Below, in pieces: positions 13,771 to 14,775 of a stretch of 64,000 nucleotides of DNA. A model generated the notes under the pieces. The model was not told the origin of the DNA and searched no databases. It saw only the letters and a list, made by a program, of their open reading frames with translations. Origin of the DNA: Shigella phage sb4. A program made the translations under genes and the position numbers. How positions within the stretch are numbered: the first letter of the stretch is position 1; each line of letters starts with the position of its first letter. The stretch lies in sequence record PQ666542; one strand, 5' to 3'.

Positions 13771-14775
13771 TTAAATTACCAGTTCAATCCAAGCTGGACG
13801 AAGTACATCTTGTACCATTTTAACTAATTCCTTCTTAATCAAAGAAGGATTATCTGCTTGAGTTAAAGTAATACCTTCACGAGAAGTTTCTTCCAAAATA
13901 TCTTGAACCGTTAGTCCCATCACCTTTCCAAAATCTTTTGGACCAATTTCGCCAATTTTAGAAATAACGTTATTTACTCGGTTCAGTGTAACGTAACAAG
14001 CTAAAATTCCCAGCAATTTATTATCAGATTCTGACAGTTCAACTTTAGCTTTAATAGGATTATCAGAATTTTTCTTTTCACTAAATTTAGAGTTCTTGCA
14101 TTTGATAGCTACACGATTGCCATTAGGCATCCAAGATGGATATCAAGGTTTCAATACATATCCTTCAGCGGTTAATACTTCGCCCTTTGCTTCGGCATTC
14201 CAAACGCATTTATTTGCATCAACTAATCCAGCATGGTCTACTGTAAAATTATAATCTTGGACGACAGAATCTAAATCATTTGGCAATTTAATAAGCTCTT
14301 CAAATTTACCGCGACCTAAAAGTGGAGCCATTTTAAATTTAAATGTATTGCAGAATGATTCCATCATATAATCATCGACATAAGTCACATCACCACTTTC
14401 TGTAGTAACAATAATGTCAAATACATAAAAATCTTTATCGCCATAATCGACATTCTTCTGAATGCCAGGTCCAGCGAATTCGCCAAAGACTTGATAAGAT
14501 ACAACCGCTGAAGTTTCCATAATATCTTGTACTGCTTTAATGGAATCAGCGTAATTCTTCAAAATAATTTCATACCCAAAGAAATCTTCAGCAGGAAGAA
14601 TAGGACCAGTTCGTTTAGCACAAGTTACTTTATTACGCTCAATAATCAATGAGAAATTTGTGCCATGAATCTTTTCACGAGCTACCCATTCGACGCCAGT
14701 CAATCCTAAACTTTAAAGTTATTCAATAAATTTAGAGTTGTAATGATTTTCAAGACTGCTATACTTTTAAAACAT
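13771..14775 (-). pseudogene. rnlB: RNA ligase 2 (RnlB) homolog with four in-frame stops: codon 3 (14767-14769), 14719-14721, 14713-14715 and TGA 14143-14145
   Basis: 335 codons in one frame = T4 RnlB length (334 aa). ORFs 14143-14703 and 13771-14130 are in the same frame; the N-terminus reads M-F-stop-KYSSLENHYNSKFIE-stop-L-stop-SLGL. Confidence 0.85.

Follow-up and report, generated by a model that had tools for sequence, protein, structure and literature searches.

The in-frame stops in rnlB of a Tequatrovirus segment are probably errors in the sequence record

The RNA ligase 2 gene (rnlB, gene 24.1) in the 64,000-nt stretch of Shigella phage sb4 DNA analyzed here (PQ666542; hereafter the window) is interrupted by four in-frame stops, which on statistical grounds are best explained as sequence-level errors and not as the marks of a dead gene, a reading to which we assign a probability of roughly 0.87. 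As the stops were private to this sequence, unselected, blind to the essentiality of the genes they interrupt and situated in bursts of a single substitution type, an error in the record is the best supported explanation. The phage itself most likely has an intact, functional rnlB, and we infer that the stops are absent from the DNA of the viable phage.

Identity and genomic context of rnlB

The window was found to be a segment of a Tequatrovirus (T4-like) genome reaching from gene 14 to gene 37, with the nearest public records being approximately 97% identical. A 32-kb record labelled "Staphylococcus phage SAJK-IND" (MG010123.1) also matched the window, with 97.0% identity over 25 kb, and looks like a mislabelled Tequatrovirus fragment.

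The rnlB frame is located at 13771-14775 on the minus strand and comprises 334 codons followed by a terminal TAA, with the four stops lying inside it. When the stops were masked, the 334-residue product could be aligned to T4 Rnl2 (PDB 2HVQ) over residues 1-333 without gaps (E=5.6e-217), and both domains of the T4 RNA ligase 2 family were recognized, Pfam RNA_ligase (PF09414) with 82.3 bits and T4_Rnl2_C (PF18043) with 83.4 bits, against a cut-off of 27 for either match. The catalytic residues were also conserved in the conceptual translation, namely K35 (motif I), R55, E99 and K225/K227 (motif V), whose roles in Rnl2 have been described previously (PMC3149579).

The genomic context is likewise that of an RNA ligase 2 gene. 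T4 Rnl2 (gp24.1; PDB 2HVQ/2HVR/2HVS, 1S68) is encoded in the same position and orientation, between gene 24 and 24.2/hoc, and RNA ligase 2 is annotated at this position in ECp13, ESh26, Killian and vB_SsoM_113. In the window, rnlB is convergent with gene 24 and situated upstream of 24.2, 24.3 and hoc, as in annotated T4-like phages. The start signals are intact, with a Shine-Dalgarno-like GAGGA (14782-14786, minus strand) 6 nt upstream of the ATG (14773-14775), and a bidirectional terminator-like hairpin (GGACC-loop-GGTCC, with T runs on both strands; 13749-13762) separates the convergent gene 24 and rnlB. The neighboring hoc gene (15355-16773) is free of stops and encodes 472 amino acids, as in ECp13, pSs-1 and Killian. 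The hoc coding sequence measures 1,707 nt in ESh26 and 1,131 nt in vB_SsoM_113, and the number of Ig-like repeats thus varies among close relatives.

Lesions inside rnlB

An uninterrupted Rnl2 frame of 334 amino acids is not present in the sequence as given, where stops occupy codons 3, 19, 21 and 211. The minus-strand translation of 13771-14775 reads MF-stop-KYSSLENHYNSKFIE-stop-L-stop-SLGLTG..., with a further stop after ...GYVLKP, and then continues as YPSW...WIELVI to the terminal stop. The sequence-only reading had described an rnlB gene with three stops in its first 21 codons and a TGA at 14143-14145; translation and the gapless alignment to T4 Rnl2 showed its identity, coordinates, strand and N-terminal reading to be exact, and all four lesions to be present.

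A single substitution separates each of the stops from a sense codon common to all five relatives used for comparison. Codons 3 (14767-14769) and 19 (14719-14721) read TAA where all five relatives have AAA (K), as a result of T>A changes at 14769 and 14721 on the plus strand, codon 21 (14713-14715) reads TAA where the relatives have TAC or TAT (Y), and codon 211 (14143-14145) reads TGA where all five have TGT (C), all on the minus strand. The TGA is one of three coding-sense T>A changes that form a run within 37 nt, at codons 201, 211 and 213. When compared to T4 Rnl2, the window has stops at K3, K19, Y21 and C211 in addition to the replacements G28V, F201L, K236N, K239N, A250S and S334I, none of which was found in any relative examined. 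All six are private missense transversions: G28V (GGC>GTC; 14692-14694) adjoins the N-terminal stop cluster, K236N, K239N and A250S (14026-14070) are three coding-sense G>T changes, and S334I (13774-13776) affects the last codon, again all on the minus strand, the sixth being F201L. In total, rnlB carries 12 private transversions (4 stops, 7 missense, 1 synonymous) and five private transitions (4 synonymous, 1 missense), and the polymorphisms it shares with the relatives are nearly all synonymous. No indels were found in the gene when compared to the five relatives or to T4 Rnl2.

The privacy of the lesions extended well beyond these relatives. For a 121-nt query covering the N-terminal stop region, the best of 498 matching phage records agreed at 117 of 121 positions, the mismatches being the three stops and G28V, and none of the three stops was present in any of the 498. 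For the TGA region (14090-14200), the best of 346 phage records matched at 106 of 111 positions. By these sequence comparisons, the rnlB lesions are private to the window sequence. Exact patterns specific to the window gave no match in scans of IMG/VR or in one scan of metagenome contigs, and exact-protein look-ups with the C-terminal Rnl2 fragment and Hoc of the window were equally without match; the single IMG/VR match (L008) was to the repaired, relative-type sequence. A clean sibling genome for direct comparison was thus not found in IMG/VR, the metagenome contigs or the exact-protein look-ups.

The possibility raised by the sequence-only reading, that rnlB uses a different start downstream of the first three stops, was not borne out. 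The sole in-frame candidate after the third stop is the TTG at codon 25, with an AGGA directly abutting it and no spacer, and the full N-terminus is encoded in all relatives. Translation from this TTG would in any case end at the TGA of codon 211, before motif V, and the longest rnlB fragment, codons 25-210 with the TTG as start, lacks that motif.

In-frame stops throughout the window

When the gene set of pSs-1 was projected onto the window, 48 in-frame stops were counted in approximately 20,073 codons, spread over 592-63822, with almost no frameshifts. Genes containing stops include 15 (934), 16 (1722), 24 (13247), 26 (21013), 27 (22389, 23115), 28 (23461, 23488), 48 (26234), the DNA ligase gene 30 (32914, 32824), uvsW (17616, 17817, 18183), nrdA (five stops, 48344-48788), td (49996, 49921), 37 (62359, 63820), rnlA, pseT and both alt-like genes. 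Among 32 genes that aligned without indels in all sequences, the window had 18 stops and each of the five relatives none. Genes 17-23 (1897-12374) contain no stops. Several of the stop-bearing genes are classic amber-lethal genes of T4, and the sequence as written can therefore not be that of a viable, plaque-forming phage.

In several places the stops lie close together. Four stops were found within 33 codons of nrdA (48344-48440), and in the second of two alt-like ADP-ribosyltransferase genes, which are arranged in tandem at 27935-32044 as in the relatives, four GAA>TAA changes were found within 28 codons (31039-31120), although stop calls in this gene are less secure owing to a stretch of poor alignment with pSs-1 (62 gap columns on each side). 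Both clusters have a burst structure like that of the rnlB N-terminus. The other two T4 tRNA-repair genes, pseT (41028-41935) and rnlA (43685-44809), are also broken, the former by loss of a single nucleotide at 41093, private to the window, in addition to a stop at codon 220, and the latter by three stops. Together with those of rnlB, these lesions could mimic the coordinated loss of an RNA-repair pathway, but they are the same transversion noise as elsewhere in the window.

With frameshifts being rare and the frames staying open past the stops, it could be proposed that the stops are read through, by reassignment or by phage suppressor tRNAs, and that the genes are functional as written; alternative genetic codes do exist in some phages. 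Reassignment would involve one stop codon that stands for one amino acid, no longer serves as terminator and has a cognate tRNA. In the window, all three stop codons are involved (32 TAA, 9 TGA and 7 TAG), replacing ten different amino acids (E, K, Y, C, G, S, L, W, R and Q), with TAA alone standing at positions of six of them (E, K, Y, S, L and Q). These codons also continue to serve as terminators where the genes of the relatives end, and no tRNA gene was found within the 64-kb window. Stops are furthermore just as frequent as random placement under this transversion spectrum would make them, and missense changes of the same types are about seven times more numerous than the stops. Mixed stops at ten amino acids rule out recoding, and the probability left to readthrough of any kind is negligible.

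A layer of private transversions

Private substitutions, defined as those unique to one genome when compared to the others, were counted over approximately 32.7 kb in the window and the five relatives. The window had 153 private transitions and 193 private transversions, while each of the relatives had 129-166 transitions and 34-53 transversions. The window is thus not enriched in private transitions relative to the five genomes over this distance, and its excess consists of around 145 transversions per 32.7 kb (~0.45 per 100 bases). The 193 transversions were distributed as 91 G:C>T:A, 66 A:T>T:A, 31 A:T>C:G and 5 G:C<>C:G.

Insertions and deletions contribute little to this layer. Private single-base indels numbered only about six in 52 kb (20256, 41093, 36209, 36691, 36963 and 19305), and are approximately 40-fold rarer than the excess substitutions; those at 20256 (gene 25) and 41093 (pseT) shift the frame, and neither lies in a homopolymer. 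Long-read homopolymer errors were rejected as a source of the lesions on the basis of this low number and the location of several of the indels outside homopolymers. Two longer private deletions, both in frame, affect repeats, one removing 24 nt from the acidic GAT/GAG repeat in gene 67 (8806) and the other 6 nt from a GCAACA repeat within the first alt-like gene (29372); they look like ordinary natural variation in repeat length.

The transversions were strongly clustered, with pairs being in 2.9-fold excess at distances of up to 20 nt, 2.3-fold at 21-50 nt and 1.7-fold at 51-100 nt, falling to 1.05-fold at 101-150 nt. Neighbors within 50 nt were of the same type in 39% of cases compared to 18% expected (z=8.6) and of the complementary type in 27% compared to 18% (z=3.8). 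The same-type effect was not seen for transitions. Runs of a single type extend to around 100 nt, the clearest such burst being eight consecutive private G>T changes over approximately 110 nt of gene 68 (8965-9075, plus strand), with every change in the part displayed being missense (for example D>Y, L>F, M>I and A>S). A bias of the purine>T changes by transcription strand or gene orientation was also considered, and none was found. The immediate surroundings of the G>T/C>A sites are AT-rich.

The density of the transversions varied along the window. The interval 2001-8000, covering genes 17, 18, 19 and part of 20, contained 10 private transversions compared to 31.9 expected (P=1.4e-6) and no stops, a low-noise zone that would fit uneven coverage. 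Intergenic sequence had 13.4 transversions per kb, a figure based on only 13 events in 968 bp, compared to 5.6 per kb in coding sequence.

Absence of selection on the private transversions

The two classes of private substitution differed markedly in their effects on the encoded proteins. In 61 indel-free genes, the private transitions comprised 3 stops, 75 missense and 155 synonymous changes, with 51, 33 and 149 at codon positions 1, 2 and 3, respectively, as is usual under purifying selection, whereas the private transversions comprised 25 stops, 168 missense and 39 synonymous changes, spread almost evenly over the three positions (80, 73 and 79). When each of these transversions was moved to a randomly chosen site with an identical base, within ±500 nt, 23.2±4.4 stops and 32.8±5.3 synonymous changes were expected, matching the 25 and 39 observed; the subset compared to all five references was in agreement, with 18 stops against 13.2±3.5 expected. 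Placement being random relative to codons, about one in ten of the extra transversions makes a stop, and missense changes are approximately seven times commoner than stops in this class. The window thus contains two layers, one of normal, selected divergence and one of unselected transversions. A sequence error would be expected to be private, to disregard codon position and gene essentiality, and to generate stops at the random rate, all of which was observed.

Two further explanations were rejected on the same data. A selected or deliberate enrichment of nonsense codons is contradicted by the number of stops, 25 being what random placement delivers (23.2±4.4), and mosaic divergence from an unsampled lineage is contradicted by the private transversions being unselected while the private transitions are selected.

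For rnlB itself, local re-placement predicted 1.06 stops, with P(>=3)=0.084 and P(>=4)=0.017. The latter value speaks for rnlB being a true evolutionary pseudogene, tolerated because the ligase is dispensable, with the stops of other genes being a separate problem; rnlB is also not among the T4 genes reported as essential in the literature. However, some gene reached at least four stops in 24% of the re-placement simulations, and the stop load of rnlB is accordingly beyond that of normal phage evolution, the relatives having none, but not beyond the noise of the window itself. The four stops belong to the same transversion classes as this noise and lie inside similar same-type runs. Decay would moreover be expected to leave relaxed selection beyond the disabling lesions, whereas the gene has no indels, its shared polymorphism and private transitions are mostly synonymous, as given above, and its catalytic residues, start signals and terminator are intact. 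Neither are the lesions shared with relatives (0 of 498 for the N-terminal stops), nor are they confined to dispensable genes, since stops also occur in 15, 16, 24, 26, 27, 28, 48 and 30. We therefore regard a true pseudogene as very unlikely. The sequence-only reading had held pseudogenization to be biologically possible for rnlB, while remarking that its lesions were of the same style as those in the structural genes. The latter remark was supported, as the same unselected transversions put stops in essential genes; the former suggestion was not, there being no enrichment over background, otherwise normal selection and an intact set of catalytic residues.

Possible origins of the unselected layer

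According to the preferred explanation, an error in the record, a natural Tequatrovirus sequence would have been overlaid by substitutions that were never exposed to selection. These extra transversions, in descending order G:C>T:A, A:T>T:A and A:T>C:G, are accompanied by hardly any indels and no surplus of transitions, and would have arisen in short single-type bursts of up to ~100 nt, and rnlB would have received around 12 of them, four of which happened to make stops. Miscalls or lesion-derived changes from reads of ~100 nt may have survived in a thinly covered consensus, a source with which both the length of the bursts and the restriction to substitutions agree, and corruption after sequencing is another possible source. 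There are counterpoints to this reading, in that current platforms do not usually leave ~0.5% of errors, all of them substitutions, in a finished consensus, and neither short-read error nor oxidation classically yields A:T>T:A changes in such numbers. The AT-rich context of the G>T/C>A changes is a third, being the opposite of the CCG/GGC context reported for library artefacts caused by 8-oxoG (PMC3616734). Oxidation to 8-oxoG was consequently rejected as the specific cause: the direction of change fits, but the context does not (PMC3616734) and the A:T>T:A class is left unexplained.

The layer nevertheless has much in common with artefacts described for damaged templates (Costello et al. 2013, PMC3616734; Arbeithuber et al. 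2016, PMC5144678). G:C>T:A is dominant in the window too, and, as with such artefacts, the changes are strand-coherent and on approximately the scale of a read, with no signature of selection and no rise in transitions or G>C. In contrast to the low-allele-fraction artefacts in CCG/GGC context (PMC3616734), the changes in the window are found in the consensus and in AT-rich sequence, and include A:T>T:A and A:T>C:G. The window could also be a faithful copy of a real but non-viable molecule, for example a heavily damaged or mutagenized genome amplified from one or very few templates (single-virion or very low-input amplification), which we consider unlikely although it would yield identical statistics. 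Lesions on one strand would in that case have been fixed as runs of the same type, and the rnlB stops would be present in the molecule as damage and not as evolution. Such an origin would agree with an excess limited to purine>T-type transversions without transitions, and with strand-coherent same-type runs of up to ~100 nt showing no sign of selection, and G>T changes that derive from lesions have been documented for single templates (PMC3616734, PMC5144678). The sequence context, on the other hand, mismatches the reported preference of 8-oxoG (PMC3616734), a scale of 100 nt would be expected of reads sooner than of damage to a molecule of 170 kb, and the density is uneven, as in the interval 2001-8000 (10 compared to 31.9 expected). 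A more specific form, in which the window derives from the genome of a single environmental virion as the one template, with the runs being the direct trace of purines damaged in situ and of lesions bypassed on glucosyl-hydroxymethylcytosine DNA, appears distinctly improbable.

An error in the record also finds parallels among Tequatrovirus records that are of low quality or flagged "UNVERIFIED", which, like the window, have a normal gene order with conserved genes interrupted by lesions unseen in relatives. The close relative ESh26 is flagged "UNVERIFIED", yet contained no in-frame stops in the 32 compared genes, and the noise in the window (48 stops in ~64 kb) is on a far larger scale.

Implications

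Apparent pseudogenes, truncated proteins and recoding signals anywhere in the window, the stops of the structural genes among them, should all be disregarded as products of a single unselected transversion layer affecting about 0.45% of bases, and annotation pipelines run on the record would split approximately 35 genes. The comparison of transitions and transversions against random placement separates noise in a record from real gene decay without recourse to the reads. The phage underlying the record looks like an ordinary new strain of Tequatrovirus with an intact rnlB.
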